Positions 2,650 to 55,532 are shown, counted from the first letter of the stretch. The stretch is 64,000 bases of DNA from Bacteroidales bacterium (GCA_029007825.1 JAQXIO010000067.1:3147-67146); one strand, 5' to 3'. Made by a program: numbers and translations. The notes: generated by a model from the sequence alone, not told the origin.

Positions 2650-2682
2650 ACCCAATACAATACCGGTCAAACGGTCGATAAA

Positions 2683-5569: not shown

Positions 5570-5603
5570 CACCCTAAAACAAATTACCTAAACAAAGAGT
5601 TAT

Positions 5604-26203: not shown

Positions 26204-26219
26204 TTTCTGTTCTGCTTTA

Positions 26220-29200: not shown

Positions 29201-32200
29201 TGGCGGTCGAATCAGGCACCGCCACATGGTCGATTGCCACTACATCTTTATCCTCATAAGAAACATAGGCGCACAGGCTCCTCGTCACCCGGTCGAACGT
29301 TACCGCCACATGCTGCCATGAAGCTTCGCCATACGCATCTTTCAACGGAACAATAGCCTTTTCCGATACGACCGTCGTTCCCCCGATACGTATCCGCAGC
29401 TTATTATCGGCCGTATAGCCGATGCCCAGTTTCTCTTTCGTCGCATAAAGCGATACGGCATCCTCGTCCCGGTCGCCGTTACGCTGCAGCCAGAACTCCG
29501 TCGTAAACGACTTCCCGTTCAGGTTCACCGGACCCGTTGTATAAGCCGTGCCCCCGTCGCCGTCGAACGACAGCCCCTCGTTATTGGCCGTACGCGCGCC
29601 GTTCGTAACCCCCTCGATCAGGAAACTTTCACTCGTAAGAGCCCCCTGATTGATCGGTTCGTTGAAATTCACCGCAATCTGCGACGACGGCAACAAAATT
29701 CCGTTCGCCGGCTCGGTACTCATTACCTGCGGGCGCTGCATATCTTTGATAATCGAAACCGGCTCGGTCGCATTCTCCCGCGCCGCACCCGTCGCAATGC
29801 ATTCGCTCACGGCACGCACCTCGTACGTGCCGTCGTTCAGGGCATTCATATCGATCGTATATTGTATATCGTTCCCCTCGATCACATATTTCGGTGTCGT
29901 CGTCTCAGATTCCCATGCAGCAGAATCAACGCAGAAAACGGCCGCCGTCACCCAGTCGCTCGTTCCGCTGCGCCGGTATTGCAAGGCAATCTTTGTAAAA
30001 TCCTTATAGCTCGTATCGAAACCGTCCACACGCACATAAAGCTGGTCGCCCGTATTATTGTTCAGCAAATCGTTGTTCTCGGGCGCCGTCATACGCAAGT
30101 CACTGCATGAAGGAGTGAAATAGACAGAGAAACGATCCACGTCGTAAACCTCGCTCGCCGACTGGAAACCGAACCACTGGCAATTCGAATGCAGTATCAA
30201 TTCTATATTTTCATAGTTAAGGCTATCCAGCCGCGACTGCACGAACTTAATCTGCTTATGAACCGTTTGTCCGGCAGGAATCGTAATATTGATGCCGCTG
30301 TTCAACGGATTCCCTTCAAGGGTAATATCCGCACCATAAGCATCGATTTTGGAGTTCGTGCACAACCCGTAGGTAATCTCCTTCCCTGCCTCCGAATTAT
30401 TGGACAACTTCACGTCGATCAGCACCTCTGTACCCGTAGGCACATCGGTCACCGTCTTATTGACAATTTCGATTTTCGGATTCTCGACCTTCTGTGTAGC
30501 CGTTTGCAACAAATGCTTGCCTGACTCGTAATACTTCGTCCGCACCTCGCCTTCATAAGGACAGGCAGTCTGTCCGCCCCGTAACACGAACACCGGCGAA
30601 GAAGCCGCCTCCTCGTAAACATCGACCGAAAGGTACGAATTCACATTCGACTCTTTCAACGTGTAAGTCGTCGTATGCGACGTTTCATCCGACCCGGAAA
30701 AAGAGGGCGTAATACCGAAAGAGAATTTCTGTCCGGGCATCGCCGTTACCCCGTTGCTGAATATATCACCGAAAAATCCGGTATACTGGTGCAGATCGAG
30801 ATGCAAGGCAACAGAGAAACCTCCACCATGGCTATCGGAGCGGGATGAAGTTTGCGTAAAAGAAGTTCCGCTATCGAACGAATAATTGTTCGTCACCTTT
30901 CCCCCTCCTATCGCTTCCACTTTTTCCCGCTCGTTTCTCGCCAAAGTCTCTTTCCACGCCGCAATCTGGTCGTTGCAGTTAAGAACAGCGTCGCCCGGCA
31001 CATAATCCGGTTGGCGTTGGGCTTCTTCCGAAGGTAAAAACATCATATAACTTTGTCCTTTCGACAAGTCGTTTTCGGGTCCCAGCGGATCATCGCCCCA
31101 CACCGGATCGTTATTACTCGTTCCATAGCCGGCATCACCCGGCCTCAAAGTCGTCAGGTAAATATTCTGGTCGGTCGTATTCACGAAATCGGACGGTATC
31201 GACTCTACCGTAGTAAGGTAACTGTTCCGCAACTCCTCCAGGTTCGGAATCACTTCGCCCTCGATTTGGGCGCCCGAATAGAGGAACGTCGTTTCGAAAT
31301 CGGTCGATACCCCGATCTCCTTATTCCTTCCGACAGTAAAAGTTTTAGCTTCCTGCTGATATTCCATATCGATATGAGCACCTTCTTCCAAACGATCTGT
31401 CTCATAGATACCGACCCAATTCATCTCACCCACCGACAAATTAGTACTCGTCCCGACAAACACATCGCCCGAAGCCCCCACATGCGAAGCATCGGTTCCC
31501 GTACTGACCGCCGATGTCGTCGTATTGCGCAACGTATAATTATAATTCCCGTTCAAAGTCAAGCCCAAATTAAATCCCAGATTCATCTTATTTCCTACCT
31601 GAGCTTTAATATTAGTCTGGACAAAAGGTGTTCCCACCGACTTATCCACATGATAACCGGTTACGACATAGGCTCCGAAACCAAACGAAGTAGAAAGCGG
31701 CATCGCGTCTATTTTCAGGTTGAAAGTCGAAGTAGAACCCTCCGACCGCGTGGCGCTGCTTGCCGACCCGGGAGGATCGCGGAGAATATCGGTAACAAGG
31801 TCGGGGCCTTTCGTTACAAAATTATTGCCCGTCGGGATACCGCCCAGCACAAAAGCCGAAAAGGTATCGTTCTCTTCCCACTCGTAAACCGTATTGGCCT
31901 TCGTCTTTACCGAAACGGACAAGCCGAGTTGGAAACTCTTATCCGGATTCGACGAATCGTAGTTGATATTCGGGAATCCTGCAATAAAACCGTAAGTACA
32001 AACCGTATCGAACGGCAGCTCCATATCTTTGCCGCTCACCGTAGAACCGTCGAGCGCCACCGAATCGAGTGCCAGAGCGTTGTTGACAAGCAACGTCGCA
32101 TCGGTAACCGGCACATAATCCTCTTCACCCGTATCGCCGTTGACATAAATCTCGTCGGCCGTTATTTCGAATTCGTAATACTGGTCTTTCAGGTAAACCG

Positions 32201-35200
32201 GAGCCCCGAAAGCATATTGCACGGCACTCTCCTCGTCGGCAAGCGAAGTAAGCGGGATCGTAATCGTATCGCCCGTAAGCACGTCGATATACTTATATTT
32301 GTCTTCACCGAACGAAGGAACCGAACCATTGTAAATCTTCGCCATTTTATCGGTCACCCGGATAGACGGGGTTTCGTAATGCACGAATTTCTGCAGCACA
32401 TTGCACGTAAACGTATCCTGCAACAGCTCCTTATGATCGCCCACCGTAACCGAGTCGCTGAAATACTGCGTCTCCATGGCCGCCATATCGGAAAGATCGA
32501 CCGTTATGACATCTTCACCGAAATACCCCTCTTCCGTGTAAGGCCGGTTTTTCAGGTAAGCCTTTACCGTATATTTCTCAGGAAGCAGCCGGGCTACATA
32601 TTCGCCCGAACCCGCTTCCGTACCGATTATATATGAATCGTTCCCTTCGGCATTGTTCTCGATCGCAAGCGACGACCGGAGCTTTTTACCGACACCGAAC
32701 GTTTCTACAGTATCCGAAGCGGTAATCCCCGGCAGCCTGTACTTCGACTTTTGCGGGGAAAGCTCGATCAGCACTTCGCCGATATTATTCCTGCTGAGCC
32801 CAAAGCCCACCTCGAGGGCGTTCTGCACGGCACCCCCTACGGCACTTCCGGCAATCACGGCGCGCGTCACGTCATAAAACATAAGCGGACTGGTCAGGTC
32901 AGACTGGAAATTATAGGTTTCATTCTTGGCCGGATAACAACCGTCGTTTTCAAACACATGCCCCTCTTTCGAAACGCTCAGCGTATGATTGCCCACAGGC
33001 ACGCTCAATTCGAAATACCCCTCGGTATCCGTCGTCACCATCGCACCGTCCGTACCGCTGATGGCCGGACTGCCGTCGATCATAACCACGGCGTTTTCCA
33101 CCGGAAACAAAGCGGTTTGTTCATCTCCGATACGTGTAGAATCGCGGTACTTCACATAACCCGTCACACGAAACGAAGAACGATCGAGAAAATCCACACC
33201 GTTTTGCACCGTCGCTCCGTTCGCCCCGATATGAATGGAAACCTCCGAAGGCGTAAACTGGTGCGTACCCATCATAGGCACTACCGAATAAGTCGTACCC
33301 TGTCCTTCGTAAGGCACACCCGAAATAACGTACGAACCGTCGGCATTGGTAATCCCTCTGAGCCAGAACTGGTTTTCGGAAGGTACCACAGGCGACGAAG
33401 CCACATTGAATAAATTACCGTTATTCTGGTTATAATTGTCGGCATTGACAAACGAAGCGTCGAAGAAATAATCCTTCAGCCCCTCGTCCAGGCGCCAGTA
33501 CGCATACAACCCAGCCTCATTACCGGCCAACGTACGGCCGTAATTATCTTTTATATGATCGGCGGTAAGCGCCTTCTTCCACAGGCGTACTTCATCCAGC
33601 AAACCGCAATAACCGCTTTCAATAGAGGGATCGGCAAGATTTCCGATCGTCGTTTTCCCCTTTGCCCCGGTGGTAAAAGACGGTGTTCCCGCAACCTGCG
33701 CCTTGCGCTCGCCGTCGATGTAAATCTCCATGCCATTCCCCACCACAATCGATACATGGCAAAAACGGGGACCCGATTGTCTGGCTCCGGGAATTTCCGC
33801 ATGCGCCATATCCAAAGGCGCCGATATAAGAGGCGACGCCATATTCTGATCCTGGCAAAGCGCGATCCGGTTGCCCGTAAGATAAATCGTAAACTCATGC
33901 TCCTGGTGGTACAACACAGCCTGCTCCTTCTCCATAGGGAGAATCCAGGCCTGCCACGTAAAGCCCTCAGAAGGCACGATAGACAAAGGCTCCTTCTTAA
34001 AGTTGACAACCGCGTATGCAGGCTTTCTCGCACCGTCCGAAGCCATCTTCGAAGTATTGAAAAAGAAGAGGCTGCGCCATCCGATGGAAAGGTCGCCCTC
34101 GTCACGCAGGTACAGCATAGCCGATGCACCCTGCACTGCATTACCGCCCGAATACGCTATTTTTCCCGTAATGGTTGCCAGAGGCTGTATAAAACCAACG
34201 ACCCCCGAACCGATTACCTTTTCGGAATAAGCCCCCTCCGCAGAAGCATCCTCCTGCGAACAATAATACTTCGCCACTACCTTATATTCATAGTACAATC
34301 CCGCCGCAGGCGTGTTGTCCGTATAATTTTCCGTCGTATTCTTTCCGTCCGAATTATACTCGTCTACCAACGCATATTCGGCCGACGAATCGCCTACCAC
34401 CCGCCGGTAAATCTGGTATTTTCCCACGAGCGAAGGAGACGTGATGCTCCACGTCAGCATTACCTTATCGGAATAAATACCCTGCGAAGCTTTTAGGGGC
34501 GATGTCACCTCGACCTCGGCCGACACGATCTGCGGATCGGTAGCCTCGCCCGTAACCACGGTTTTCTCCGGATAATTCGTAGAAAGCTTGAAATAATAGG
34601 AATAAGGTGTACAATAATCGACCCGGTCCGTATAAACCCGTTCGATATACGACTGGCAACTGCGTACCACCACGATCTCCTCGCCGCCGCCCGACCGCCA
34701 CAGGTCAAGCTGCTCCGACTCGCAATTCGGTTCGCTCCACTCGATCTTCATCTGCGCCTTATTTTCCGATGAAACAGGCGTTACCCTCAGCGAAGGCACA
34801 GTACCGTTATCTATGTTCACATTTACATTCATCGAAGAAGTATTGCAATCTCCGGAAGGAAATTCATCGGGAAACGTTCCGTGATAAATCAGGTACGTAT
34901 AATCCAGCGTACGTCCCGAAGTCCCGATCTTATGTACATAACTTTTATCCGAATAAAGCGGATTACCGGGCAGACGTACAAACTCGCCTCCGTTTTCGCT
35001 GCACCAGATAGATACCGGCGAATTTCGCGTATCGGCATTCGCCTCATTATCATATGCATCCCATTCGATCAGCATGGAACCGGAACAACGGTCGTAACCG
35101 ACATTTCGCAGATACGCCGCATCGTAACCCAGAAAATGCACCGGAGCCGTTTCGAGGTAACACCACATATTCCTGTACCCGTCGGAATTCGCATACTTAA

Positions 35201-36047
35201 AAGTTATGCTGGCATCCCATGGCCAGCTTTCGCTGAAAGCATCGAAATCATAACTGCCTTCAGATTCTAGCCCGGACATTTCCCGACTGTAGCCTATTCG
35301 GCCAAATTCACTGAAAGCGCCTATTTCCACTTTACTGGAAGAATTATTCGACCATTCGGCATTCCTCCAGCTGAAACGAAACGTATTACACGACTTCCGC
35401 TCTATTGTAATCGAAGGTGTTCTGGGTGGACTGACAGTTATCTGGTAATTCACCGTACTGTGATGGTCGCCACCTCCCTGCGAATAATTGCCGCCGCAGT
35501 CCGAATCCCTGTCCCAGAAATATTCGAGTGAAACCTCCACCCGCTGACCAATCAGATGAGACGGGCAATACCAACGGACATACGCCCAGCGGCAATCGCC
35601 CCAGTCTTCCAGGTCGCCGTAGCCAGACTCCTTCCGCAAATCCTTCTGGTGCACCAAATCCTTTATCACTTCGACATAGCCGCCGCAGTCGTCATAATCC
35701 CCGAAACCATACTCGCTGCTGCGCGACAAACGCCAGTCATTATCCCCATCGTTCCCCTTCTGGGGTTTCAGCGTCGATACGAGAATCCCGTTGACCCTCA
35801 CTTTTACATAGGCCATACGGTCTTCTACCCCGTAATTGTCATAATACAGGTAACGGAACTCCACATAAGGCTGGTCCAGAAAATCGACCGATACGTTTTT
35901 GTCCTTATGGTCGTACCCCCCCTCATGAAGGCGGATATGCCGGTCTTCGATAAAATCGACATCGGCAAACACGGAAACCGCAAAAAACAAACCGAAAAAC
36001 GATAACAATAAACGAATATCGAAAAAATGTAAAAATTTTGCCCTCAT
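26220..36047 (-). CDS. giant T9SS-secreted surface protein with three LamG/ConA-like lectin modules and carboxypeptidase-regulatory-like module
   Basis: 3275 aa. Signal peptide (..AVSVFAD). Three LamG-type endings (LDEVRLWKKALTADHI, IRDVRIWNEARMQGDI, IDEVRMWNSYREP). A CarbopepD_reg-like stretch (ITNADGSYVISGVPYEG). C-terminus ISVYPVPADYEITVNL...GVYMLVVTGDETRRVKIIKQ is typical of a T9SS CTD. The stop is 16 nt before the start of the next gene. Confidence 0.9.
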   Translation of the reverse strand: MRAKFLHFFDIRLLLSFFGLFFAVSVFADVDFIEDRHIRLHEGGYDHKDKNVSVDFLDQPYVEFRYLYYDNYGVEDRMAYVKVRVNGILVSTLKPQKGNDGDNDWRLSRSSEYGFGDYDDCGGYVEVIKDLVHQKDLRKESGYGDLEDWGDCRWAYVRWYCPSHLIGQRVEVSLEYFWDRDSDCGGNYSQGGGDHHSTVNYQITVSPPRTPSITIERKSCNTFRFSWRNAEWSNNSSSKVEIGAFSEFGRIGYSREMSGLESEGSYDFDAFSESWPWDASITFKYANSDGYRNMWCYLETAPVHFLGYDAAYLRNVGYDRCSGSMLIEWDAYDNEANADTRNSPVSIWCSENGGEFVRLPGNPLYSDKSYVHKIGTSGRTLDYTYLIYHGTFPDEFPSGDCNTSSMNVNVNIDNGTVPSLRVTPVSSENKAQMKIEWSEPNCESEQLDLWRSGGGEEIVVVRSCQSYIERVYTDRVDYCTPYSYYFKLSTNYPEKTVVTGEATDPQIVSAEVEVTSPLKASQGIYSDKVMLTWSITSPSLVGKYQIYRRVVGDSSAEYALVDEYNSDGKNTTENYTDNTPAAGLYYEYKVVAKYYCSQEDASAEGAYSEKVIGSGVVGFIQPLATITGKIAYSGGNAVQGASAMLYLRDEGDLSIGWRSLFFFNTSKMASDGARKPAYAVVNFKKEPLSIVPSEGFTWQAWILPMEKEQAVLYHQEHEFTIYLTGNRIALCQDQNMASPLISAPLDMAHAEIPGARQSGPRFCHVSIVVGNGMEIYIDGERKAQVAGTPSFTTGAKGKTTIGNLADPSIESGYCGLLDEVRLWKKALTADHIKDNYGRTLAGNEAGLYAYWRLDEGLKDYFFDASFVNADNYNQNNGNLFNVASSPVVPSENQFWLRGITNADGSYVISGVPYEGQGTTYSVVPMMGTHQFTPSEVSIHIGANGATVQNGVDFLDRSSFRVTGYVKYRDSTRIGDEQTALFPVENAVVMIDGSPAISGTDGAMVTTDTEGYFELSVPVGNHTLSVSKEGHVFENDGCYPAKNETYNFQSDLTSPLMFYDVTRAVIAGSAVGGAVQNALEVGFGLSRNNIGEVLIELSPQKSKYRLPGITASDTVETFGVGKKLRSSLAIENNAEGNDSYIIGTEAGSGEYVARLLPEKYTVKAYLKNRPYTEEGYFGEDVITVDLSDMAAMETQYFSDSVTVGDHKELLQDTFTCNVLQKFVHYETPSIRVTDKMAKIYNGSVPSFGEDKYKYIDVLTGDTITIPLTSLADEESAVQYAFGAPVYLKDQYYEFEITADEIYVNGDTGEEDYVPVTDATLLVNNALALDSVALDGSTVSGKDMELPFDTVCTYGFIAGFPNINYDSSNPDKSFQLGLSVSVKTKANTVYEWEENDTFSAFVLGGIPTGNNFVTKGPDLVTDILRDPPGSASSATRSEGSTSTFNLKIDAMPLSTSFGFGAYVVTGYHVDKSVGTPFVQTNIKAQVGNKMNLGFNLGLTLNGNYNYTLRNTTTSAVSTGTDASHVGASGDVFVGTSTNLSVGEMNWVGIYETDRLEEGAHIDMEYQQEAKTFTVGRNKEIGVSTDFETTFLYSGAQIEGEVIPNLEELRNSYLTTVESIPSDFVNTTDQNIYLTTLRPGDAGYGTSNNDPVWGDDPLGPENDLSKGQSYMMFLPSEEAQRQPDYVPGDAVLNCNDQIAAWKETLARNEREKVEAIGGGKVTNNYSFDSGTSFTQTSSRSDSHGGGFSVALHLDLHQYTGFFGDIFSNGVTAMPGQKFSFGITPSFSGSDETSHTTTYTLKESNVNSYLSVDVYEEAASSPVFVLRGGQTACPYEGEVRTKYYESGKHLLQTATQKVENPKIEIVNKTVTDVPTGTEVLIDVKLSNNSEAGKEITYGLCTNSKIDAYGADITLEGNPLNSGINITIPAGQTVHKQIKFVQSRLDSLNYENIELILHSNCQWFGFQSASEVYDVDRFSVYFTPSCSDLRMTAPENNDLLNNNTGDQLYVRVDGFDTSYKDFTKIALQYRRSGTSDWVTAAVFCVDSAAWESETTTPKYVIEGNDIQYTIDMNALNDGTYEVRAVSECIATGAARENATEPVSIIKDMQRPQVMSTEPANGILLPSSQIAVNFNEPINQGALTSESFLIEGVTNGARTANNEGLSFDGDGGTAYTTGPVNLNGKSFTTEFWLQRNGDRDEDAVSLYATKEKLGIGYTADNKLRIRIGGTTVVSEKAIVPLKDAYGEASWQHVAVTFDRVTRSLCAYVSYEDKDVVAIDHVAVPDSTASIGVLYLGANPGGAASLKGKIRDVRIWNEARMQGDIYASQSSVLSGSELGLMHYWPMNEAHGDLAEDRTSSRHMTVATDWFAGAGGKAAVIGSEGKALRYNSSVNGLVLPDENFTLEFWFKSGGQPSGTEAALFSAGKGDGTDAGNEINRRGALSVRIVYGDSVVLWSAGRKHNVAPDRYTDGSWHHFALTVNRNGYADVLLDGVQTYRVPGNEIGGIEQTYTYLGVLGYAETAGVVYSSPFTGSIDEVRMWNSYREPPLISHWMHTKMRGDEAGLTVYYPFERYVEDSFGQQTVEATAESGLLNSTVPAGPAECVDGTALVFGSDVPLLRDARPTQNIASTYVASSERVVVNINLEDKYIEKQNLTVTASGIKDLNGNDIEGAHSWNVYVLRNTLKWKSSFVETQKPVDEPLSFTASVTNLGSKSVSYSIRHLPWWLSVSEVSGDIGSVGATELTFHVDDELSIGEYEELVYLYNEDNGIAEPLRISLKVYGDAPVWAVDPSIGRDVVMTILGDLTVGGELSADTEDLIGAFSGNTCIGVASPQRVSDKLYETFVFMNVYNPQSSQPIVFKVWDASTGKIYSHVLPDDIVFNADRPLGTPGAPVHFVTGNTLQQNMALQQGWNWVSLTVDAKGANSVSALFEGHEGGISMIKSQSGGAIYQDGKWLNGALSMIPEEMYKVKSTTGTTVEIQGASLGGVRRLIHLSTSDNPAVPHGWNWIGYTPSVPLSLKEAFVNAVPQEGEMVKSQDGFAVYHSGMGWIGSLTTLRPGTGYMYKALSPRSFIYPETTLNSRSALAEAVPETSYWKPDPYAYAGTMIVIAQINNHIPGGADEIGVFAGSELRGAAVPQYVDGEGWRYLLYVYGDTPGEKLTFRYYDAARGQVFDIAESTTFVSDGLTGSLADPFVLSLKNWSGTDDAVSDGISVYPVPADYEITVNLDAPAEKAVILDASGAVVWQADRFEGGTVNIAHFASGVYMLVVTGDETRRVKIIKQ

Positions 36048-37899: not shown

Positions 37900-40347
37900 C
37901 TATATAAACAAATTCACGTTCGCTTTGTCGGCACGCTCCATATAAGTCGCTACGCCACCCACCGTTACCTCGTCGAGCAGCTCCTCACGCTTTACCCCCA
38001 TCACATCCATAGACATCTGGCACGCGATAAACTCAACGCCCTGTCCGAGCGCCTGGCTGCGGAGCGTCTCGAGCGATTCGATACCCTTTCGTTTCATAAT
38101 ATACCGCATCATACGGTCGCCGATACCGAACATACTCATCTTCGAAAGCGACAGGCGCAGCGAATCCGACGGCAGCATCATTGAAAACATCCTGCCGAAC
38201 AAATCCTTTTTCACCTTGGGCTTCTCCGTTTTCTTGATGACATTCAACCCCCAGAAGGTAAAGAAAATCGAAACCTTCCGGCCCGTAGCCGCCGCACCGT
38301 TGGCAAGCACGAAAGTCGCCAACGCCTTATCCAGGTCATCGCTGAACAGAATCAGCGTCTTTCCCTTTTCGTCGCACGAAGTCGCCACGCTGCACTTTTC
38401 CGGCGCACCCTTTTCGATCACCACCGTATAGCGCCCTTTATCTTCCATATTCGAGATAAGCTTATGCCCCGTCGTATTGCACCACGCCCCGGCATCGCGC
38501 GAAAAACCGGCATCCGTTGCCACCACTTCCGCACGTTCACCCTCCTTTATCGCATCGATAGCCTGTTTCACCCGCAGGATAGGTCCCGGGCATTGCATAC
38601 CGCAGGCATCGATCTTAACCGTTTTCACCGGACTCTCCGCTACAGAATCGCTCACACGATCCCTCTTCTCATTCGATACCGGCGAAACCGGATTTACGAT
38701 AGGAGCCGTAGCCGCCGAATAAGTACGGTAACCGCCCGAAAGATTCTTCACGTCGGCAAAACCCCGCGCCATCAGGATTCTCTGTGCGAGGTAACCCCGT
38801 ACGCCCACCGAACAGTAAACATAAACTTCCCTGTCCGACGGAATCTCCGGAAGGCGTCCGCGCACCTCGTCCAGCGGAATATTCACCGCACCGGCAATCG
38901 CCCCGAAAGCAAACTCCTCCTTCGTGCGCACATCCAGCACGAACACCCCTCTTTCCACGGCACCCGCCATATCCCGCCACGTAACGGCAGGCATAGCGCC
39001 GCTAATAATATTTCCGGCCACATAACCGGCAATCGCGATAGGATCTTTCGCCGATGAGAAAGGCGGCGCATAAGCCTGCTCGAGTCGCGCAAGGTCATAA
39101 ACCGTACCACCCAGCTTGATAACCAACGCAGCCTGGTCGATACGCTTATCCACGCCATCGTACCCCACACCCTGAGCACCGTACAATTTCCCGTTCTCCG
39201 GGTCGAAAGTCAGTTTCAGGCTCAAAGGCAGTGCACTAGGATAATAGCCCGCATGCGACAAAGCATGCGTCGCCGCGCTACGGTACGCTATATCCATCTG
39301 CTTCAGCCGTTTTGCCGGAAGCCCCGTCGAAGCCACCGTCATATCGAACACCTTTGCGACCGAAGTTCCGATAGCCCCCTCATATTTCGTGATATTTCCG
39401 AAAACCATATTATCCGCTACGATACGCCCCTGACGATTAGCAGGATTGGCAAGATAGTTAAGCCACGGCTTTCCCGTAAGCGGATGCGGATATTCGATAG
39501 CATCACCCACCGCATACACATCCTTCGCCGAAGTCTCCAGAAACTCGTTCACCCGTATTCCGCCCGTCTCGCCCGTTTCGATACCGGCAGCCTTTGCAAG
39601 CGTTGTCTCCGGACGCACGCCGATAGACAAGATAACCAGATCGGCATTTATACTCTCCCCGTTATCGAAAAAGACCTTCAAACCATCGTCCCCACGTTCG
39701 AAACGCTTCACACTCCGGCCGAGAAACAACCGCACCCCCTTCTGCAGAAGATGCTGGTGAATAAGCGACGCCATGGAGAAATCGAGCGGAGCCATCACCT
39801 GGTTACCCATCTCCACGACAGAAACCTCGGCACCCGCATGATACAGGTTCTCCGCCATCTCCAAACCGATAAATCCGGCGCCTACCACAACGGCCTTCCC
39901 GATTTTATGCCTCTCCATATAGCTCTTGATACGATCGGTATCCTCCACATTGCGGAGCGTGAAAATCCCTTCCGAACCGATCCCCTCCAAAGGCGGCTTC
40001 ACCGGAACGGCACCCGGCGAAAGCAACAGCCGGTCGTAACTCTCGATATAAGAACTTCCGTCCGAACGCCGCACCGTAACGGTTTTCGCAGCGGTATCGA
40101 TAGCCGTAACCTCGTTCTCCACACGCACGTCCACATTCAGACGCCGTCCGAACGAAGCGGGCGTCTGCACGAACAACTTCTCCCGGTCGGTAATCGTCCC
40201 CCCGATATAATAGGGCAACCCGCAATTCGCATACGAGATATACTTTCCCTTCTCCATCAAAACGATCTCGGCAAACTCATCCGCCCTACGGATTCTTGCC
40301 GCCGCCGTAGCACCTCCGGCTACACCTCCGATAATAACATGTTTCAT
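37900..40347 (-). CDS. four-domain CoA-disulfide/persulfide reductase - rhodanese - TusA-like - DsrE-like fusion protein
   Basis: 815 aa. FAD GxGxxG (GGVAGGATAA). CoADR-type redox Cys (SYANCGLPYY). NAD site (VVVGAGFIGLE). Rhodanese loop (VYCSVGVRG). TusA CPxP motif (CGMQCPGP). C-terminal DsrE/F-like domain. Confidence 0.9.
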   Translation of the reverse strand: MKHVIIGGVAGGATAAARIRRADEFAEIVLMEKGKYISYANCGLPYYIGGTITDREKLFVQTPASFGRRLNVDVRVENEVTAIDTAAKTVTVRRSDGSSYIESYDRLLLSPGAVPVKPPLEGIGSEGIFTLRNVEDTDRIKSYMERHKIGKAVVVGAGFIGLEMAENLYHAGAEVSVVEMGNQVMAPLDFSMASLIHQHLLQKGVRLFLGRSVKRFERGDDGLKVFFDNGESINADLVILSIGVRPETTLAKAAGIETGETGGIRVNEFLETSAKDVYAVGDAIEYPHPLTGKPWLNYLANPANRQGRIVADNMVFGNITKYEGAIGTSVAKVFDMTVASTGLPAKRLKQMDIAYRSAATHALSHAGYYPSALPLSLKLTFDPENGKLYGAQGVGYDGVDKRIDQAALVIKLGGTVYDLARLEQAYAPPFSSAKDPIAIAGYVAGNIISGAMPAVTWRDMAGAVERGVFVLDVRTKEEFAFGAIAGAVNIPLDEVRGRLPEIPSDREVYVYCSVGVRGYLAQRILMARGFADVKNLSGGYRTYSAATAPIVNPVSPVSNEKRDRVSDSVAESPVKTVKIDACGMQCPGPILRVKQAIDAIKEGERAEVVATDAGFSRDAGAWCNTTGHKLISNMEDKGRYTVVIEKGAPEKCSVATSCDEKGKTLILFSDDLDKALATFVLANGAAATGRKVSIFFTFWGLNVIKKTEKPKVKKDLFGRMFSMMLPSDSLRLSLSKMSMFGIGDRMMRYIMKRKGIESLETLRSQALGQGVEFIACQMSMDVMGVKREELLDEVTVGGVATYMERADKANVNLFI

Positions 40348-48114: not shown

Positions 48115-49335
48115 TTAAAGCGTTTTAGCTGCATCATTTATCTTTAGCAAGTGTTTTTTTACAAGCGGATATAAGGTTTTATATAAAACATATACAGTAA
48201 ACATGAAAAAAATAAGTTGCCCGAAACACCTCTGCATCAACTGTAAATCAGGCATGGATCCAGTAGAAATCATAAATATCAATTCCTTTATATGCCCCGG
48301 AAAGGTCCTGAAGAATTTTATTATAAACACAGGTATGAAATATAAAAAATAAAAACCGAAAATCAAGTTAACTAGTATTGTATATATAATTGCAACCGTT
48401 CTTTGCTTTTTTGAAATAGCTAAAAGGTAGGGTCGCTTATTAATAGGCTTTTTAAAAGATCGATTAAAATAATACTTAAATACTTCAGAAGTTCTTTGCC
48501 TTAAGTTGGGAATACCCAATAAATCTGACATAATCCAATAACCATCAAATTTTAAAAATGGATTAAGAGTAATCGCCATATTAATATTTACCGACAGGAT
48601 ATAATACTTTAATATATTATTTCCGGTTTCAGCATATATCAAAAACATGGGAATCAGTAATATTAGTTGAAAATATATTCCCGCTATATTTACCACCATT
48701 TTTTGTAGTTTTGGTAACTGCCATACTTCAGAAACATCGGTGTAAAAAACAGGAAAATTTATATAAAGCCCAAATCCAATTCCTCCGTGATTAACTCCAA
48801 AATATCTGCATGCGGAGGCATGCCCTAACTCATGAAAAAATGAAGATAATATAAACAATCCCAATAATCCGATAATCATATAAAGATCTATCTGGTTAGT
48901 ATTGAATATTGTTAAATTATTCGTAAAAAACAGTATCTCTAAAACCACTATCGCTACCATAATAAGTAACGATATCCATTTATTAAATAATACCTTAAGA
49001 ATATTGGATAATGTACCTATTGTTTTTTCAGAAAGCAGCTCTATATTAAAAATAAATGGAGAAGATTTTTCCTTAGAAGCAGGCTTCAATATTTTACCCA
49101 AACAATTTTCTATTATAGATTCAATTTCTTCATCATTAAATATCCGCCCTTTTTTTGCATAAAACTCTTTCAACCCGTCTATAGATGATTTTTCTTTCAA
49201 AAGATCTATTAACTCAAAGACTGTTTCGTTAATTTCAAAATTTCTTTCTTTATAACATACTATATAGCGCTGATCGACATTCGATGTTGCCAGCTTTCGT
49301 ATTTCAAGCTCATGAATCAATTTGAGATCTACCAT
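48115..49335 (-). CDS. M50-family (site-2-protease-like) intramembrane zinc metalloprotease with PqqD/RRE-like N-terminal domain
   Basis: 406 aa. HExxH in a TM helix (FFHELGHA). Second M50 signature NxxPxxxxDG (NPFLKFDGYW). N-terminal ~85 soluble aa (YIVCYKERNFEINETVFELIDLLKEKSSIDGLKEFYAKKGRIFNDEEIESIIENCLGKIL) have the layout of PqqD-type peptide-binding domains. Confidence 0.85.
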   Translation of the reverse strand: MVDLKLIHELEIRKLATSNVDQRYIVCYKERNFEINETVFELIDLLKEKSSIDGLKEFYAKKGRIFNDEEIESIIENCLGKILKPASKEKSSPFIFNIELLSEKTIGTLSNILKVLFNKWISLLIMVAIVVLEILFFTNNLTIFNTNQIDLYMIIGLLGLFILSSFFHELGHASACRYFGVNHGGIGFGLYINFPVFYTDVSEVWQLPKLQKMVVNIAGIYFQLILLIPMFLIYAETGNNILKYYILSVNINMAITLNPFLKFDGYWIMSDLLGIPNLRQRTSEVFKYYFNRSFKKPINKRPYLLAISKKQRTVAIIYTILVNLIFGFYFLYFIPVFIIKFFRTFPGHIKELIFMISTGSMPDLQLMQRCFGQLIFFMFTVYVLYKTLYPLVKKHLLKINDAAKTL

Positions 49336-49353: not shown

Positions 49354-49376
49354 GGGGGTATAAATTATATACCCCC
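49354..49376 (-). terminator. intra-operon GC-clamped stem-loop just after precursor gene (possible partial terminator or mRNA-stabilising/processing hairpin)
   Basis: gggggtata (49354-49362) pairs with tataccccc (49368-49376), 5-nt loop, 18 nt downstream of the precursor stop on the minus strand. Only a weak U-tract follows. Confidence 0.5.
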
Positions 49377-49394: not shown

Positions 49395-49583
49395 TTATGA
49401 TACCGGAGAACAAACGTTTTGTTCTGAGCTACACTGAACGGCGCAAAAACAAGCGGCACCGTCAATCCCATCTACAGGGCCAAACAGATCCAACAAGCCT
49501 CCCACCGTAAGAATGTCTGTTTCAAGACGTTTCTCAAGTTCCTGAACAAAAAAATCATCATACAACTGCTCATTAAGAGGCAT
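49395..49583 (-). CDS. candidate RiPP precursor peptide (acidic helical leader, GG motif, Cys-rich C-terminal core)
   Basis: 62 aa: MPLNEQLYDDFFVQELEKRLETDILTVGGLLDLFGPVDGIDGAACFCAVQCSSEQNVCSPVS. Cys at 45, 47, 51 and 58. Lies 65 nt after the rSAM/SPASM gene and 59 nt before the M50 gene, on the same strand. Confidence 0.75.
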   Translation of the reverse strand: MPLNEQLYDDFFVQELEKRLETDILTVGGLLDLFGPVDGIDGAACFCAVQCSSEQNVCSPVS

Positions 49584-49648
49584 TAATTCCTCTTTTTTTC
49601 ATTTTTTTTCATAGTGAAAATTTAAAATTAAATTAATAAAAACACAGG

Positions 49649-51052
49649 TTACTGCATAGCCGGCATAACACACTCCTCGTACGCTTTATTAGCAGCATAT
49701 TTAAAGGTATTAGAATAGCCATCACAATAATTGCTGTTTATATCTTTATTTCTTGTAATAGAAAGGTGTAGGCATCCTCCACTACATAGCAGAGCGTATT
49801 TGCACACGGAACAATTTTCTGATCCATTTATATTTCTGGCATGCCATCTACTAAGCTCTGGTGTCCACTGTATTTTATCGGAGTATTTGCCTATTACATT
49901 TTGAGGGTTTCCCACAAGGCTCCAACAGCCATAAATATTTCCATACGGATCAAAAATATAAGAACCGCTTTGGGCTGCACAAAATGTTGAATTTAAATAT
50001 ATCTTCCTTTTTTCTTTAATCGCTTTTGATAATTTATTATATATTCCAAAATCCTGACACCCGTACTTATTACCATTAAATTCTAATTGCTTGTAATTTA
50101 TTCTATTAAATTCTTCTCTATTTAAATAGTTTAAAACAGCGCTTTTATTATTAGCATCGGGAGAATAATCCTTTAACAAGGCCGACTTAAATGCGAATTT
50201 TTCAAATTTACTATATCCAAGTTCGTCGAAATAATTTAAAATTTTTTTAATGTCACTGATGTTATTTTTATCAGTATTGTAACGTATCGCAACAGCTATA
50301 TCTTTTTTTAATGCAATTCCTATATTTTTCACTATCTTATCAAACGATCTTCCCGTTAAATAATGAATACGCCTATTATCATGTTCTTCCTTAAACCCAT
50401 CAATGGTTATCTGCAAAGTATTAATCTTTTCAGGAGAAAGCAGATCTTCATAGTGATCTAAATCATAGCCATTGGTTATAGCCATAAAAGTCATTCCAAA
50501 TTTTTGTGCCCTTGATACTATATATTCTACTATTTCTTTATTTTCTTTAAGTAAAGGCTCTCCCCCATATAAAATACTTTGCCGGCTTCTTAATTCTGCC
50601 CGAGGTTCTATTTGTTCCATTGCATAGAATGCTTTATCAACCAGCTCTTTAGTAAATTTTCTCTTTGTCCATTGATGTCCCTCCCCTGATATCTCGTTTT
50701 CATAACAATATGGGCATCTAAAATTACAATCATAGGAAATTAAAAACATGAAATTTTTAAAAAGGCTTTTATCTTTACGATGCATCAGATTTGCAAGCTT
50801 TTTTACATATTCTCTCTCTTCCCGCAATGTCTTTGTTGTAATATATCCTCTACTAATTAATAATTTCAAAGTATCATCATTTAGGCCATCTGATTGTAAA
50901 TTTATGAAGCTTCCATTTTCCTTTAAATACTTCACTATTTGTTTACTTGCAACATCTATAGCTCCTGTGTAGCCATGAATTAGCATGTATTTTTCCGATG
51001 CTTTTTCTAATTTAATGAAAATAGTATACGAAGATAAACGATAATTAATCAT
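49649..51052 (-). CDS. radical SAM / SPASM-domain peptide maturase
   Basis: 467 aa. CNFRCPYC (Cx3Cx2C at C109/C113/C116) after a ~100-aa N-terminal extension. GGEPLL. Full SPASM Cys pattern: CAAQSGSYIFDPYGNIYGC (with Gx4C), CSVCKYALLCSGGC (Cx2Cx5Cx3C) and a final NYCDGY. Confidence 0.92.
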   Translation of the reverse strand: MINYRLSSYTIFIKLEKASEKYMLIHGYTGAIDVASKQIVKYLKENGSFINLQSDGLNDDTLKLLISRGYITTKTLREEREYVKKLANLMHRKDKSLFKNFMFLISYDCNFRCPYCYENEISGEGHQWTKRKFTKELVDKAFYAMEQIEPRAELRSRQSILYGGEPLLKENKEIVEYIVSRAQKFGMTFMAITNGYDLDHYEDLLSPEKINTLQITIDGFKEEHDNRRIHYLTGRSFDKIVKNIGIALKKDIAVAIRYNTDKNNISDIKKILNYFDELGYSKFEKFAFKSALLKDYSPDANNKSAVLNYLNREEFNRINYKQLEFNGNKYGCQDFGIYNKLSKAIKEKRKIYLNSTFCAAQSGSYIFDPYGNIYGCWSLVGNPQNVIGKYSDKIQWTPELSRWHARNINGSENCSVCKYALLCSGGCLHLSITRNKDINSNYCDGYSNTFKYAANKAYEECVMPAMQ

Positions 51053-51547
51053 AATGCATTAGATTGTTAATTATTTATAATTATAGATAGAAATAATATT
51101 ATTTTACTATAAATATAATATTATCCCCAAAACAAGCAGATTATTATCTAATAATTAGGATTTCCTAAATAAGAAGAAGTCCTGATTTTTCCATAAAATA
51201 AAAATTTAAGGTGTGGCTTATATAGTAACTCAATTACAAATCTATAATTAAACTTTCATTATTTGAAATAGTCAATGCTATAAAATACGTTAATTATATA
51301 AAATTATACTTTTATTATGATATTCATAAATACCGATAGGTATCCGTTCGCTCCGATTATAAATTTCTCCATATATTTTTTTTAACCTAATACTCTATTA
51401 AAATTTTGGATTCCGATAAAATGGAATAACTTTTTCAATTCGAGATTTTAAAAGACGAAGCCTGAATATTACCATAGTCCTACCAACCACAAAACAACAG
51501 AAAAGTAATAGATCGCACTTTTAAACTTTCTCATTATTTTCATACGG

Positions 51548-53380
51548 CTATTCTACTGGAGATCTATAAATATCCGAGAAATAACGAAAAAACAGTTCAT
51601 CCCTGTTTTCGGCAGGATTGAAATGGCCTTCATTCTCGACACGCCGGTAAAGAATACGGTTATTATATTTCTTTGCCTTTTCCACAAATTTGTCCGCCTG
51701 ACTGATAGGAATTTCATTATTACGCGAATGCGATATGAATAAATACGTCTGCGCGGGCAATTTATTTAAACTGTCAATCAAATAATCGGGATAAATCCCG
51801 TTTGAAACTCCAACCCCAGCAGCCAGCGCCGGATTACGCTGGCAGGCACTCAACGCTTTGGTACCACCGGCGCATCCACCCAACAAATAAATACCTCGGT
51901 CGTCGATAGCATAATGCCGTTTCAAATCGCTCAACGCTTCATTCAGATCTGTATCCGCTTCGGCATTGTAAATAAGCTGGGCACGCAAATAAGGAAATAA
52001 CAAAGCAAAACCGTACTCATCGGCAAGACGGTACTCCCAACTAAGGAAATCAATATCCGAAATATACCAGCTAAGAGGCATAATCGGAGGATCGGCAAAA
52101 TAGTAGGGCATATAAATGACCAATGGAACCTTACGGGTGCTATCGGCACATAACTGCGGGGAAATATGGAAAAGATAATATTGTTCCGACGAATCCGACG
52201 GAGATACATACTTTTTTAGAAAAGTTCCCGGTCGGTTGCGCAAAGTCGAACCACTCGAAACAGCCCGGTCTATATCCTGCAATTGAAGCAAAGTCGATAA
52301 TTTATTCCTCGAATTAAATGAAACATCATGCACCCGGTAAGCCGCCGAACGCTGCTCCTTCAAATGATCGTACCGCTGTTGCAGAGAAGAGACATAATCC
52401 CCGGCATCTGCCCTCTCTCCCGATTCGCAATACACCTCTGAAACCAAAGCATCGAAAAACGGATCTATTTCTCCTATAAAACAATACTCTGCCAAAACCG
52501 TATCCGGCAATGATAATTCAGACCGGTACAAACCGTCCGATAATCCTTCGGGAAGCGCTACTTTCCAACTACTATATCTCTCTACAACACCAGCCTCTCC
52601 CGCCGGTAAAGTATTCCGGTCAACCCCGAATTGTTTACAGTCCTGCAAATCATACAATGCAAACCCGACCTTCTCCGAATAGGCGTAAGGCCCCAAATAA
52701 ATCTCCACCGAATCGTCCCTTCCCTCAATAACAGGATCGACAACGAAATCACACCAGTAATCGTTCCGGTAATGACTTCTGGCAACCAGCTCATCCTGTA
52801 CCGAACAATAAAACTCCCAGTGGGAAACACCCTTCTCTACTTCCGTTTGTGAAAGTTTTACAACCACCGTATTATCGCCCTCAGCAAGAGAAGCGACAAT
52901 ATGGTTCTCTACCTGTTTTTTTATATTTCTTTTCCACTGACATGCAAAAATATTCTCCGAATTCAGCCAGACTTCCATCTGCTGCGCAAAGTTAAAACCG
53001 AAAACAACTGTCTTGGCCTGAGAAGAATACACATTAAAAAACAAATACACACACGATGGTTCTTTAACACTTGGAAAAAAATCATTAAAATCAAAATAAT
53101 TCTCCAGATTTGGCGACAAAGTCCGCACCTTAACACCCCGCTTTCTCAAAACATCCAAAGCGGCAAATCCACCTTTATATATTTCCGGATCGAAATTACC
53201 GGATAAATCCGAACAGCTTGCACTATCGATACGGAGCGGAAACGAAGCACAAACCTTATTTATCACTACTTCCGAATTGCCTTCGGAAAAATCGACCGAA
53301 AACCGGGGGGTTTTTGTACATGAACAAATCAGCACACAAAAAACAGGGAAAACTCGAAAGAAAATACATGTGGTTTTCAT
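51548..53380 (-). CDS. lipoprotein with C-terminal alpha/beta-hydrolase-like domain (Cys at nucleophile-elbow position)
   Basis: 610 aa. Lipobox LICSC. C-terminal ~200 aa are esterase/peptidase-like with IYLLGGCAGG where GxSxG is expected, and a late His (ENEGHF). Confidence 0.7.
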   Translation of the reverse strand: MKTTCIFFRVFPVFCVLICSCTKTPRFSVDFSEGNSEVVINKVCASFPLRIDSASCSDLSGNFDPEIYKGGFAALDVLRKRGVKVRTLSPNLENYFDFNDFFPSVKEPSCVYLFFNVYSSQAKTVVFGFNFAQQMEVWLNSENIFACQWKRNIKKQVENHIVASLAEGDNTVVVKLSQTEVEKGVSHWEFYCSVQDELVARSHYRNDYWCDFVVDPVIEGRDDSVEIYLGPYAYSEKVGFALYDLQDCKQFGVDRNTLPAGEAGVVERYSSWKVALPEGLSDGLYRSELSLPDTVLAEYCFIGEIDPFFDALVSEVYCESGERADAGDYVSSLQQRYDHLKEQRSAAYRVHDVSFNSRNKLSTLLQLQDIDRAVSSGSTLRNRPGTFLKKYVSPSDSSEQYYLFHISPQLCADSTRKVPLVIYMPYYFADPPIMPLSWYISDIDFLSWEYRLADEYGFALLFPYLRAQLIYNAEADTDLNEALSDLKRHYAIDDRGIYLLGGCAGGTKALSACQRNPALAAGVGVSNGIYPDYLIDSLNKLPAQTYLFISHSRNNEIPISQADKFVEKAKKYNNRILYRRVENEGHFNPAENRDELFFRYFSDIYRSPVE

Positions 53381-53915: not shown

Positions 53916-54680
53916 CTATTTTTTCGGAAATTCGATTTCCCTGCGTCGGAACTCCGCGCAGACAACAGCCGTGGCGACCGCCACGTTAAGCGACTCTGAC
54001 GTAACACTGTCAGGCGGAAAATTCGGAATATAAAGCCGGTGCGTCAGAAGGGCATCCACCTCCGCACTGATACCGTTCCCCTCGTTCCCCATAACGATCA
54101 TACCCTTTCCGTCCAGTTTTTCACCATACAGGTTATTACCGTCCAGAACGGTTCCGTAAAGAGGCATATCCAACGTTTTCAGAAACGGTACAAGATCAGT
54201 ATAATGCACCCTCACGCGTGCCAGCGCACCCATCGTAGCCTGCACCGTCTTCGGGTTATACACATCCGCGCACTGGTGCGAACAAAACACCTCGCCGATA
54301 CCGAACCAATCCGCCAGACGGATAATCGTACCCATATTGCCCGGATCCTGCACCCCGTCCAACGCCAACGACAATTTCCCTTTCAGCGCCTCCCTGTCCG
54401 GCTCGTAAACCGGTTGGCGGAATACTGCCAGCACATCCTGCGGCGACTTCAGCAGCGAAGCGCTACGGATATCCTGCTCGTCCGCCACCACTAACTCCTC
54501 CGTATGTAAATCGCCCTGCGTAGCCATCCATTGCGGCTTTGCCACCAGCAACTCACACTCGAAATGCCCTAACAGGTCGGCCACTAATTTATTCCCTTCG
54601 GCAAGAAAAACACCGTACTCATCCCGAAACTTCTTTTTCTCTAACGACTTAATATATTTGATTTTATTCTTACTCAGCAT
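53916..54680 (-). CDS. TrmH/SpoU-family RNA 2-prime-O-methyltransferase
   Basis: 254 aa. SpoU motifs DPGNMGTIIRLAD, MGNEGNGIS and SLNVAVATAVV. The last ~21 codons before FPKK-stop lie in the right 65-bp repeat. Confidence 0.9.
   Translation of the reverse strand: MLSKNKIKYIKSLEKKKFRDEYGVFLAEGNKLVADLLGHFECELLVAKPQWMATQGDLHTEELVVADEQDIRSASLLKSPQDVLAVFRQPVYEPDREALKGKLSLALDGVQDPGNMGTIIRLADWFGIGEVFCSHQCADVYNPKTVQATMGALARVRVHYTDLVPFLKTLDMPLYGTVLDGNNLYGEKLDGKGMIVMGNEGNGISAEVDALLTHRLYIPNFPPDSVTSESLNVAVATAVVCAEFRRREIEFPKK
53931..53995 (+). repeat. 65-bp direct repeat, right copy (att-like), inside 3-prime end of TrmH-family gene
   Basis: Identical to 43087-43151. On the minus strand it encodes SLNVAVATAVVCAEFRRREIE. 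Confidence 0.95.
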
Positions 54681-54705
54681 CTGTTTATAATGTTATCAAA
54701 CAAAA

Positions 54706-55146
54706 TTATAAGGTTAGCACTTGGGTAAACTCATTATTTTTTTGAAAGTCATCATCCCATATAAATTTCACTTTAATTGTTTTCGGAAATCCCACTATTA
54801 ATCGAAATATCACTTCAGTCGAATCTTGAGGATTTAACAATTCATAAGGAAATGGGTTTTTAAATATATCTAAACGGTCAGCATTACTTATTAACTCAAA
54901 TCGCACATTTAATGCCTTAGATCGCCCCTTATTATATACTTTTAATGTTCTTGGCCCTTTTCCTACTTTTACAATATTTCCTCTTATCTGAGCCTTTTTT
55001 ATCTCAAGTTCTTCTATTTCGTTCTTTTTAAGTTGATAATCATTTAATTTTCTTTCTTGTTTTTTCAACTTATTATCATGAAATATAAAAGTAAAAATAC
55101 CAAATAATAAAGCAATACATGCCACAATAAGACTAGCTAATTCCAT
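54706..55146 (-). CDS. hypothetical membrane-anchored protein
   Basis: 146 aa. One N-terminal TM helix, a Lys/Glu-rich coiled segment, then a beta-rich C-terminal domain. AT-rich. Starts 3 nt after the upstream ORF. Confidence 0.55.
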   Translation of the reverse strand: MELASLIVACIALLFGIFTFIFHDNKLKKQERKLNDYQLKKNEIEELEIKKAQIRGNIVKVGKGPRTLKVYNKGRSKALNVRFELISNADRLDIFKNPFPYELLNPQDSTEVIFRLIVGFPKTIKVKFIWDDDFQKNNEFTQVLTL

Positions 55147-55149
55147 ATT

Positions 55150-55422
55150 TCACTTAAATCTTATAAATTTATTTCCACTGAATATTTTCCTAAATTTTCT
55201 AGTAATATCTTCTTCAATCTCAGCACTAATCTCCGCTTTAAATGAATCCACTCCTTCCAGAATTGTTCCTTCATTTAATTCAACCAATTCATCATACCCT
55301 CCCGGATATTCCCTATTACAAAGATTACATTTAATATGACTTCTATCCTCATCAAATTCAAAATCTTCACCACCACATGTTATACATCTAAGAATAATAT
55401 TTCTCGTATAATATTTTTTCAT
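55150..55422 (-). CDS. hypothetical zinc-ribbon protein
   Basis: 90 aa with CITCGG ... CNLCNREY (CxxC-x17-CxxC) and an acidic C-terminal half. AT-rich. Confidence 0.55.
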   Translation of the reverse strand: MKKYYTRNIILRCITCGGEDFEFDEDRSHIKCNLCNREYPGGYDELVELNEGTILEGVDSFKAEISAEIEEDITRKFRKIFSGNKFIRFK

Positions 55423-55532
55423 ATTCTAATATCATTTTAATACTAAATTAGACTTAAAAATGCAAAACACAAAACACTTTAGACGAATCATGTTGATTAG
55501 ATTAAAATATTTCTGTAAATCCAAAATTTTGT

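Follow-up and report, generated by a model that had tools for sequence, protein, structure and literature searches.

A 62-residue open reading frame (ORF) on the minus strand of a 64,000-nucleotide stretch from a Bacteroidales bacterium (GCA_029007825.1 JAQXIO010000067.1:3147-67146; hereafter the window) very probably encodes a genuine precursor of a peptide that is made on ribosomes and modified post-translationally (RiPP), judging from the sequence of the ORF and of its relatives. The gene starts 65 nt downstream of a radical S-adenosylmethionine (rSAM)/SPASM gene and ends 59 nt upstream of a gene for a HExxH metalloprotease. The original prediction, made from the window alone, that the ORF is a RiPP precursor beside its rSAM maturase gained support from the same arrangement in 68 of 78 related loci. 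As a whole, the explanation that we regard as likely is that the ORF belongs to a large, uncurated precursor family of the Fibrobacteres-Chlorobi-Bacteroidetes (FCB) group, in which the rSAM enzyme would modify the core and an M50-like protease would remove the leader.

New here is an rSAM RiPP system with a leader signature of its own, a predicted leader peptidase of the site-2-protease type, and unexplained partners in the envelope. The full-text literature, subscription journals lying outside the scope of the search, contained no description of the family when searched for the leader motif and the gene combination. We provisionally consider the family undescribed; large rSAM atlases may list its clusters without a name. 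Peptides modified by rSAM enzymes in Gram-negative gut bacteria have barely been explored, and the combination of a CteB-like enzyme, a site-2-protease-like peptidase, and two envelope proteins raises questions about how cleavage and export proceed in Gram-negative bacteria without a C39 peptidase-ATP-binding cassette (ABC) exporter (PCAT).

The precursor ORF and its family

Translation of 49395..49583 on the minus strand gives MPLNEQLYDDFFVQELEKRLETDILTVGGLLDLFGPVDGIDGAACFCAVQCSSEQNVCSPVS (62 aa), with Gly28-Gly29 and Cys45, Cys47, Cys51, and Cys58, which is exactly the peptide and the residue numbering of the original prediction; no strand had been named there. Residues 1-33 include eight acidic and two basic residues. 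Pfam and NCBIfam scans of the peptide returned no family, and when it was the sole query of a word-indexed homology search, no match came back, not even to itself. Homologues were recovered by fetching loci via the rSAM gene. At E≤1e-20, we counted 958 homologues of the rSAM protein; most come from Bacteroidales, and the closest is 52% identical. Using an alignment of 22 rSAM homologues, we fetched 80 genomic loci and searched all their ORFs of at least 25 aa by phmmer with the window peptide alone as the query. About 95 small ORFs were matched over 80 independent loci (best E 2e-14), nearly all of them immediately 3' of the rSAM gene and on the same strand. Homologous ORFs are present after the rSAM gene in 68 of 78 loci. 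Their number varies from one to six per locus, with six tandem copies in L002, four in L008 and L043, and three in L022 and L033.

The original prediction had proposed collecting homologues beside related rSAM genes and aligning them, and had named a lack of conservation, or an interrupted ORF, in related loci as a reason to abandon the precursor. The ORF proved clearly conserved, with a homologue in 68 of 78 loci, and the alignment revealed a conserved leader and a variable core. One relative has a frameshifted copy: in Bacteroides pyogenes (L009, 7472-7649), the precursor is split into two ORF fragments. At another locus (L034, 7364-7630), the leader is duplicated in tandem inside one ORF, the first copy having no core.

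A profile of 42 peptides run against 5.8 billion proteins identified at least 825 members, every one of them named "hypothetical protein" and none with a Pfam domain. The exhaustive profile search yielded 298 clusters at 50% identity, with lengths all between 44 and 141 aa. NCBIfam holds no model for the family according to a scan of 42 members at E≤1, in which one weak AzmA match (E 0.0033) was the sole match to a RiPP family and five further matches, each of a single member, were to unrelated families. Within the 64-kb window, a hidden Markov model (HMM) of the family produced a single match in six frames (E=3e-19; runner-up E=0.22), and the earlier statement that only one precursor is visible holds for the entire window. 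This HMM contains the window sequence itself, and the independent evidence is provided by the homologous loci.

The hosts belong to the FCB group, mostly to Bacteroidales but also to Flavobacteriales, Chitinophagales, Balneolales, Ignavibacteria, and Latescibacterota. Both gut and environmental bacteria are represented, including genera common in the intestines of humans and animals (Bacteroides, Phocaeicola, Prevotella/Segatella, Parabacteroides, Paraprevotella, and Butyricimonas), as well as the oral pathogen Tannerella forsythia and Elizabethkingia meningoseptica. Six cassettes of the Bacteroidales type (L012, L035, L041, L046, L047, and L070) were found in metagenome-assembled genomes labelled Clostridia, Lachnospiraceae, Roseburia, or Gammaproteobacteria, and these are probably mis-binned contigs. 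A sister clade of the rSAM enzyme with 35-36% identity (L075-L077, including Bacteroides oleiciplenus) is linked to a 738-aa PCAT, and no precursor of the RLE type was found in that clade.

Leader, linker, and core

We anchored 197 distinct homologues on the LExRLE motif and computed the entropy at each position; the residue frequencies below refer to this set. The leader block ELExRLETDPL has an entropy of about 1 bit or less per position, except for the free x position (residue 18, 3.06 bits). Arg19 is present in 100% of the homologues, Glu21 in 99%, Leu16 and Glu17 in 97% each, and Thr22 and Pro24 in 95% each. The acidic ELEKRLE stretch, which had been said to resemble leader recognition motifs, falls into this conserved block. 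A moderately conserved SLNxxLYDEF element lies N-terminal of it. The window peptide is typical of the family except for two points, namely Ile24 in place of the 95%-conserved Pro and a very short N-terminus. The conserved leader motif offers a simple handle for annotating hundreds of "hypothetical" ORFs.

The Gly-Gly, put forward earlier as a cleavage motif, does not appear to be a defining one in the family, with Gly28 conserved in 67% and Gly29 in 65% of the homologues. The entire DPLxxGGLxDL linker is missing in the Elizabethkingia, Balneola, Saprospiraceae, Ignavibacteria, and Latescibacterota clades, in which the first Cys follows 2-5 residues past RLE. The functional leader would therefore end near RLE(T), and the Gly-Gly would be a lineage-specific feature of the linker.

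From residue 34 onward, the entropy exceeds 3.3 bits, and 17% of the residues in this variable part are Cys, in agreement with the Cys-rich, variable C-terminal core that had been suggested; the core in the window has four Cys. The number of Cys per peptide ranges from 0 to 11 with a mode of 3-4, and 193 of the 197 homologues have at least two. CxxxC, Cx5C, and CxC are the favoured spacings. Odd Cys counts (96 homologues) are as common as even ones (101 homologues), and a purely disulfide role of the Cys residues is therefore unlikely. The closest relative (L081, a metagenome in the European Nucleotide Archive whose rSAM protein is the one with 52% identity) encodes ...AAGFCFIQCSSEQNICSPVTR. 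Its core is identical to that in the window at 14 of 20 positions and keeps Cys47, Cys51, and Cys58 but has Gly for Cys45; the two have CxxQCSSEQN(V/I)CSPV in common. A fixed leader followed by hypervariable cores, often in tandem, characterizes bioactive or signalling peptides that diversify, and the arrangement makes a convenient engineering scaffold.

The rSAM/SPASM enzyme

The putative maturase has the rSAM motif CxxxCxxC at residues 109/113/116 and a canonical seven-Cys SPASM arrangement at residues 358, 376, 414, 417, 423, 427, and 443 (Cx17C...Cx2Cx5Cx3C...C), which is invariant in 22 homologues. The TIGR04085 SPASM model scored 53 bits against a cut-off of 27. An AF2 model with a predicted local distance difference test (pLDDT) score of 87.3 begins with a domain of β-sheet and helices at the N-terminus, after which come the rSAM barrel and the SPASM domain. 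Foldseek searches with this model ranked CteB (5WGG/5WHY) and TigE (8VPO), the latter of which we take to be a cyclopropylglycine synthase, at the top, both over the full length, followed by SuiB and anSME. CteB was also the best sequence match in the PDB. The NCBIfam matches are maturases of Cys-rich RiPPs (CefB, TIGR04463, FlmE/OhkG, PapB, and SCIFF), all scored far under their cut-offs: 128 bits against 600 for CefB, 114.6 against 340 for PapB, and 85.5 against 425 for SCIFF, with QhpD at 77 against 453 and StsB at 44 against 625. By analogy, we infer that the enzyme works like a CteB-type peptide cross-linker outside all curated families, and the chances that it forms Cys-derived thioether cross-links seem to us evenly balanced.

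The HExxH protease and its probable role in leader removal

The protease encoded next to the precursor has about five transmembrane (TM)-like segments and the zinc motifs H168ExxH172 and N258Px4DG265, both of which are found in 55 of 55 homologues. It is related to the proteases of daptides and epipeptides, with its best NCBIfam scores below the respective cut-offs (daptide_HExxH, 4e-28, 98.5 bits against 300; YydH/LiaK, 1.5e-16, 60.9 bits against 225), and Pfam Peptidase_M50 scored 18 bits against 27.2. Protease and rSAM genes are found together in 55 of 78 loci. From its position and motifs, this adjacent HExxH protease is likely to be the leader peptidase.

The original prediction had noted a puzzle: a Gly-Gly leader without a C39 peptidase, implying that either the site or the protease is atypical. 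The puzzle is largely resolved by the adjoining M50-like HExxH protease. Neither the cassette of the window nor any of the 68 RLE-type loci, surveyed to a distance of 6 kb, contains a C39 peptidase or PCAT, and the only ABC genes in these loci are of the MacB type. The M50 protease EpeP reportedly suffices for producing epipeptides and has been proposed both to cleave and to export (PMC10885120). The hydrophobic linker PLxVGGLLDLF with its helix-breaking Gly-Gly might be a plausible substrate for a site-2 protease.

The N-terminus of the window copy

The mini-ORF that overlaps the precursor ATG (Table 1) is probably the displaced N-terminus of the precursor. The five in-frame codons 5' of the called ATG come after a TGA and read KKEEL, in keeping with the consensus of the family. 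An ATG in another frame is located at 49612, and lengthening the A7 run at 49593-49599 by one A would yield MKKNEKKEELMPLNE... (MKKNEKKEELMPLNEQLY...), which matches the N-termini of homologues, for example, MKKNEKKHFAEELISLNE. The true N-terminus may thus be 10 residues longer than called. The displacement could reflect phase variation, an error in a homopolymer, or a frameshift that became fixed and was rescued by the internal Met. It leaves the leader block and the core untouched, and naturally short N-termini such as MELKSLNE and MNAELVSLND occur in the family.

Comparison with known systems

The system shares with the ranthipeptides and SCIFF peptides (CteA/CteB, PapA/PapB, and Tte1186) a three-domain maturase with an N-terminus like a RiPP recognition element (RRE), an rSAM domain, and a seven-Cys SPASM domain, CteB being the best match, as well as a precursor consisting of a leader and a Cys-rich core encoded beside the enzyme. 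However, the ELExRLETDPL leader is unrelated to theirs, the family has no acceptor motif of the CX3D/T type (PapA has CX3D), and the enzyme is far under the PapB and SCIFF equivalog cut-offs. The hosts also differ, being Gram-negative members of the FCB group, and so do the accessory genes, which encode the M50-like protease, a Wzy_C-TPR protein, and a TonB-receptor-like barrel.

An HExxH/M50 intramembrane protease beside the precursor in a small cassette is also found with epipeptides (EpeX/YydF, the rSAM enzyme EpeE/YydG, and EpeP/YydH) and daptides. The window protease is, in contrast, below both NCBIfam cut-offs, the rSAM enzyme is CteB-like with EpeE as a distant fold match, and the core is Cys-rich and hypervariable. 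The Gly-Gly precursors of Bacteroidales with PCATs (NCBIfam GG-Bacteroidales; PMC10352776) have in common with our family the host order, an rSAM enzyme, and often a Gly-Gly before the core, but our cassettes are without a PCAT, the Gly-Gly is conserved in only 65-67%, and there is no NCBIfam match. A BAGEL4 survey of Bacteroidales treated such PCAT/Gly-Gly clusters (PMC10352776).

CefA/CefB ("Cys-every-fifth"), TIGR04463, and FlmE/OhkG, which are uncharacterized or partly characterized orphan RiPP families, provide the top NCBIfam matches of the enzyme. It reaches only 119-128 bits against cut-offs of 500-600, though, the precursor signatures differ, and no peptide arginase is present here. 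FlmE/OhkG is a DD(I/V)LF orphan family with different precursors, and some such families come from Bacteroidota (PMC12703449). The itf cluster of Bacteroides thetaiotaomicron (rSAM ItfD, YcaO ItfB, PCAT ItfE, and the TonB-dependent transporter ItfF) is likewise a Bacteroides rSAM RiPP cluster with a TonB-dependent outer-membrane protein, yet it has a precursor with a C-terminal ITF motif, a YcaO protein, and a PCAT, and its product has a Trp-Ile C-C link (PMC11002830).

Proposed pathway and alternative explanations

The acidic leader (LNxxLYDEFxxQ-ELExRLETDPL) would dock to the RRE-like domain at the N-terminus of the rSAM/SPASM enzyme, which would then act on the Cys-rich core, with about equal chances for and against the formation of Cys-derived thioether cross-links like those made by its nearest characterized relatives. 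The modified peptide would be passed on to the M50-like HExxH protease, and the leader would be cut between RLET and the first Cys, plausibly within PLxVGGLLDLF. Transport of the product through the inner membrane may be a second task of this protease, in line with the proposal made for EpeP in epipeptides. The Wzy_C-TPR protein and the TonB-receptor-like barrel would act later in the envelope, possibly in export, re-uptake, or further modification.

Several observations weigh against this pathway. The rSAM enzyme is far below all curated equivalog cut-offs, and its chemistry is therefore not transferable by homology. No consistent or usable acceptor motif was found beside Cys in the 197 homologues. 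Tyr was enriched at Cys+3 in this search, an enrichment probably driven by one abundant subfamily, FCSPICDFTCLVY. In residues 1-100 of the protease, Pfam at E≤10 identified no PqqD-like RRE; hhalign gave a probability of 1.6% for the protease N-terminus against the N-terminal profile of the rSAM enzyme, and the single-sequence AF2 model was unusable (pLDDT 45.7). Moreover, the copy in the window could be impaired, considering Ile24 and the apparently displaced N-terminus.

The alternative that survives best, doubtful as it appears to us, accepts the precursor as genuine but has the rSAM enzyme introduce a modification of another kind than a thioether, such as a C-C or C-O cross-link, an epimerization, a Cys oxidation, or some further new linkage. 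In that case, the Cys residues would form disulfides or serve as metal ligands, and, given the barrel, the product may be a metallophore or an imported signal. This is consistent with an enzyme under the cut-off of all characterized families, whose fold is equally close to TigE and also matches SuiB, and with a TonB-dependent receptor-like barrel in the cassette. TonB-dependent receptors usually import. The Trp-Ile C-C link made by the Bacteroides itf cluster, an rSAM cluster with a TonB-dependent transporter, sets a precedent (PMC11002830). On the other hand, Cys is the sole near-universal feature of the cores, with two or more in almost all homologues, odd Cys counts are as frequent as even ones, and the nearest relative in both structure and sequence is the thioether synthase CteB.

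A more far-reaching extension, which we consider unlikely, is a new class of envelope-processed RiPPs, combining an undescribed rSAM cross-link with the Wzy_C-TPR protein (O-antigen-ligase/PglL-like) as a new RiPP tailoring enzyme and the barrel for passage through the outer membrane. As part of this unlikely combination, the Wzy_C-TPR protein would glycosylate the peptide or ligate it to a lipid-linked glycan or the cell surface.

Decay of the precursor, or of the entire cassette, after horizontal acquisition, to the point that this genome no longer makes the product, seems quite unlikely. Nine N-terminal codons out of frame, the change of the 95%-conserved Pro24 to Ile, the low-GC island around the cassette (see below), the lack of upstream genes found in relatives (the regulator and the 650-aa F5/8 type C protein), and the frameshifted precursor of the relative in B. 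pyogenes would fit such decay. However, all five ORFs of the cassette are intact, the catalytic Cys and zinc motifs are present, and both the leader block and the core are intact, the latter being conserved with L081. Short N-termini are, furthermore, natural in the family.

We regard it as very unlikely that the Gly-Gly acts as a genuine double-glycine site and that a PCAT from another part of the genome cuts there. Gly-Gly is the majority state in Bacteroidales (65-67%), PCATs with Gly-Gly precursors are common in RiPP clusters of this order (PMC10352776), and the sister rSAM clade is linked to a PCAT. Against this stand the lack of a PCAT in the cassette or within 6 kb at the 68 RLE-type loci, the absence of the Gly-Gly from one third of the members and of the linker from whole clades, and the retention of a dedicated protease gene beside the precursor. 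That the ORF merely arose by chance in a spacer between genes, as its shortness, the lack of Pfam and NCBIfam matches, and the initially empty word-based search might have suggested, can be practically dismissed because its position, strand, and sequence are kept in dozens of loci across several phyla.

The cassette and its genomic context

The precursor we propose is part of a tight five-gene cassette on the minus strand, coding for the rSAM enzyme, the precursor, the protease, the Wzy_C-TPR protein, and the TonB-receptor-like barrel (Table 1). The invariant core of the cassette consists only of the rSAM gene, the precursor, and the protease. The Wzy_C-TPR protein has about 12 TM-like segments, and its homologues are found in the cassette at 25 loci and in L081. 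Homologues of the barrel were detected at 20 loci (phmmer, E≤1e-5), and the gene maps contain a barrel of about 760 aa between precursor and protease in many more Bacteroidales loci. Barrel and protease are fused in frame in six loci of the Prevotellaceae type. This joins an inner-membrane to an outer-membrane protein, which is odd, and a functional link between protease and barrel is therefore argued for. The fusion frame at these loci (L032-L035, L041, and L043; around 2650-5945) comprises 1094 aa and has an internal signal-peptide-like stretch at the junction.

Table 1. Positions of the precursor, its parts, and the surrounding cassette in the window.
Feature	Position	Strand	Remarks
Precursor peptide gene	49395..49583	minus	62 aa as called; stop TAA 49395-49397
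Conserved leader block, residues 15-25 (E-L-E-K-R-L-E-T-D-I-L)	49509..49541	minus	Consensus ELExRLETDPL
Gly28-Gly29 in hydrophobic linker (I/P)LxVGGLLDLF	49497..49502	minus	Gly 67%/65% conserved
Cys-rich core, Cys45-Ser62 (CFCAVQCSSEQNVCSPVS)	49398..49451	minus	Hypervariable zone of the family
Out-of-frame mini-ORF MKKNEKKRN*	49583..49612	minus	Stop overlaps precursor ATG (TAATG); holds A8 and A7 runs
Stem-loop GGGGGUAUA-UAAUU-UAUACCCCC	49354..49376	minus	9-bp GC-capped stem, between precursor stop and protease start
rSAM/SPASM peptide maturase, 467 aa, N-terminal RRE-like domain	49649..51052	minus	Pfam Radical_SAM and NCBIfam SPASM
HExxH intramembrane metalloprotease, 406 aa, M50/site-2-protease-like	48115..49335	minus	NCBIfam and motifs
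Polytopic Wzy_C (O-antigen-ligase-like) membrane protein with C-terminal TPR, 723 aa	45940..48111	minus	Pfam Wzy_C 4e-13, TPR
TonB-dependent-receptor-like outer-membrane barrel, 798 aa	43532..45928	minus	Pfam CarboxypepD_reg, Plug, OMP_b-brl_3
Bacteroidetes -7 box TAnnTTTG (TAGATTTG)	51237..51244	minus	Sole match; ~185 nt upstream of rSAM start; weak, motif 0.75/kb in cassette

Other loci additionally have MacB-type ABC pumps, and L081 also has an OEP protein and a membrane-fusion protein. Upstream of the cassette in gut Bacteroidales loci lie genes for an approximately 580-aa TPR/TM protein, a DUF3244/Por_Secre_tail protein, and a 650-aa F5/8 type C protein. The first of these could be read as a regulator from a LuxR-like C-terminal helix-turn-helix spotted by eye. 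Downstream of the protease in Elizabethkingia, Balneola, and Saprospiraceae loci (L014/L068, L018, L030, and L060), the Wzy_C-TPR and barrel genes are replaced by genes for a 279-aa CarboxypepD_reg protein and a 653-aa SQHop_cyclase_C/prenyltransferase-like toroid, which is squalene-hopene-cyclase-like and has a DDxxD-like motif. The set with the 653-aa protein may represent a different tailoring step.

The cassette coincides with a sharply delimited low-GC island at about 43.5-51.5 kb, with 26-34% GC against 45-55% in the flanks, where housekeeping genes are located, namely lspA and genes for an rRNA methylase and an RND efflux pump. This suggests horizontal acquisition, and no convincing flanking repeats or att sites were found around the island. 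The precursor gene had been described as less AT-rich than its neighbours, and correctly so, with 43.9% GC against 27.9-34.3% for the four surrounding genes (rSAM, 31.5%; protease, 29.4%; Wzy_C-TPR, 27.9%). Its GC content is nevertheless close to the window mean of 46.8%, which makes the neighbours in the island the outliers. A 610-aa protein encoded upstream (51548..53380) was considered as a member of the cassette and rejected, having native GC content and a homologue in no related locus.

The stem-loop between precursor and protease is probably an attenuator or an mRNA stabilizer. The surrounding 71-nt fold has a ΔG of -19.9 kcal/mol (z = -3.2), and 0 of 200 shuffled sequences were as stable. 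Among 67 homologous cases, 31 have a strong hairpin after the precursor gene, compared with 2 of 53 control segments. A hairpin after the precursor is the classic RiPP layout yielding precursor in excess over the enzyme. No promoter-like element was found between the rSAM gene and the precursor, and a sigma-70 promoter scan gave 52 sites against 48 expected, no better than shuffled sequences; the single Bacteroidetes -7 box upstream of the rSAM gene is listed in Table 1.

Other features of the window

A second, small low-GC patch (about 30% GC) occurs at 54500-55500 between an rRNA methylase gene and an RND efflux operon. It contains two ORFs without a Pfam match, 54706..55146 (146 aa) and 55150..55422 (90 aa). 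On the minus strand, 18674-36047 is occupied by giant ORFs of 2509 and 3275 aa. One of them has Listeria-Bacteroides repeats, and the second carries Laminin_G_3 domains and a Por_Secre_tail, the sorting signal of the type IX secretion system, which identifies the host as a member of Bacteroidota that bears this system. An 815-aa protein encoded at 37900-40347 on the minus strand combines Pyr_redox_2, rhodanese, TusA, and DsrE-like domains and resembles a sulfur-trafficking fusion of the CoA-disulfide-reductase type.

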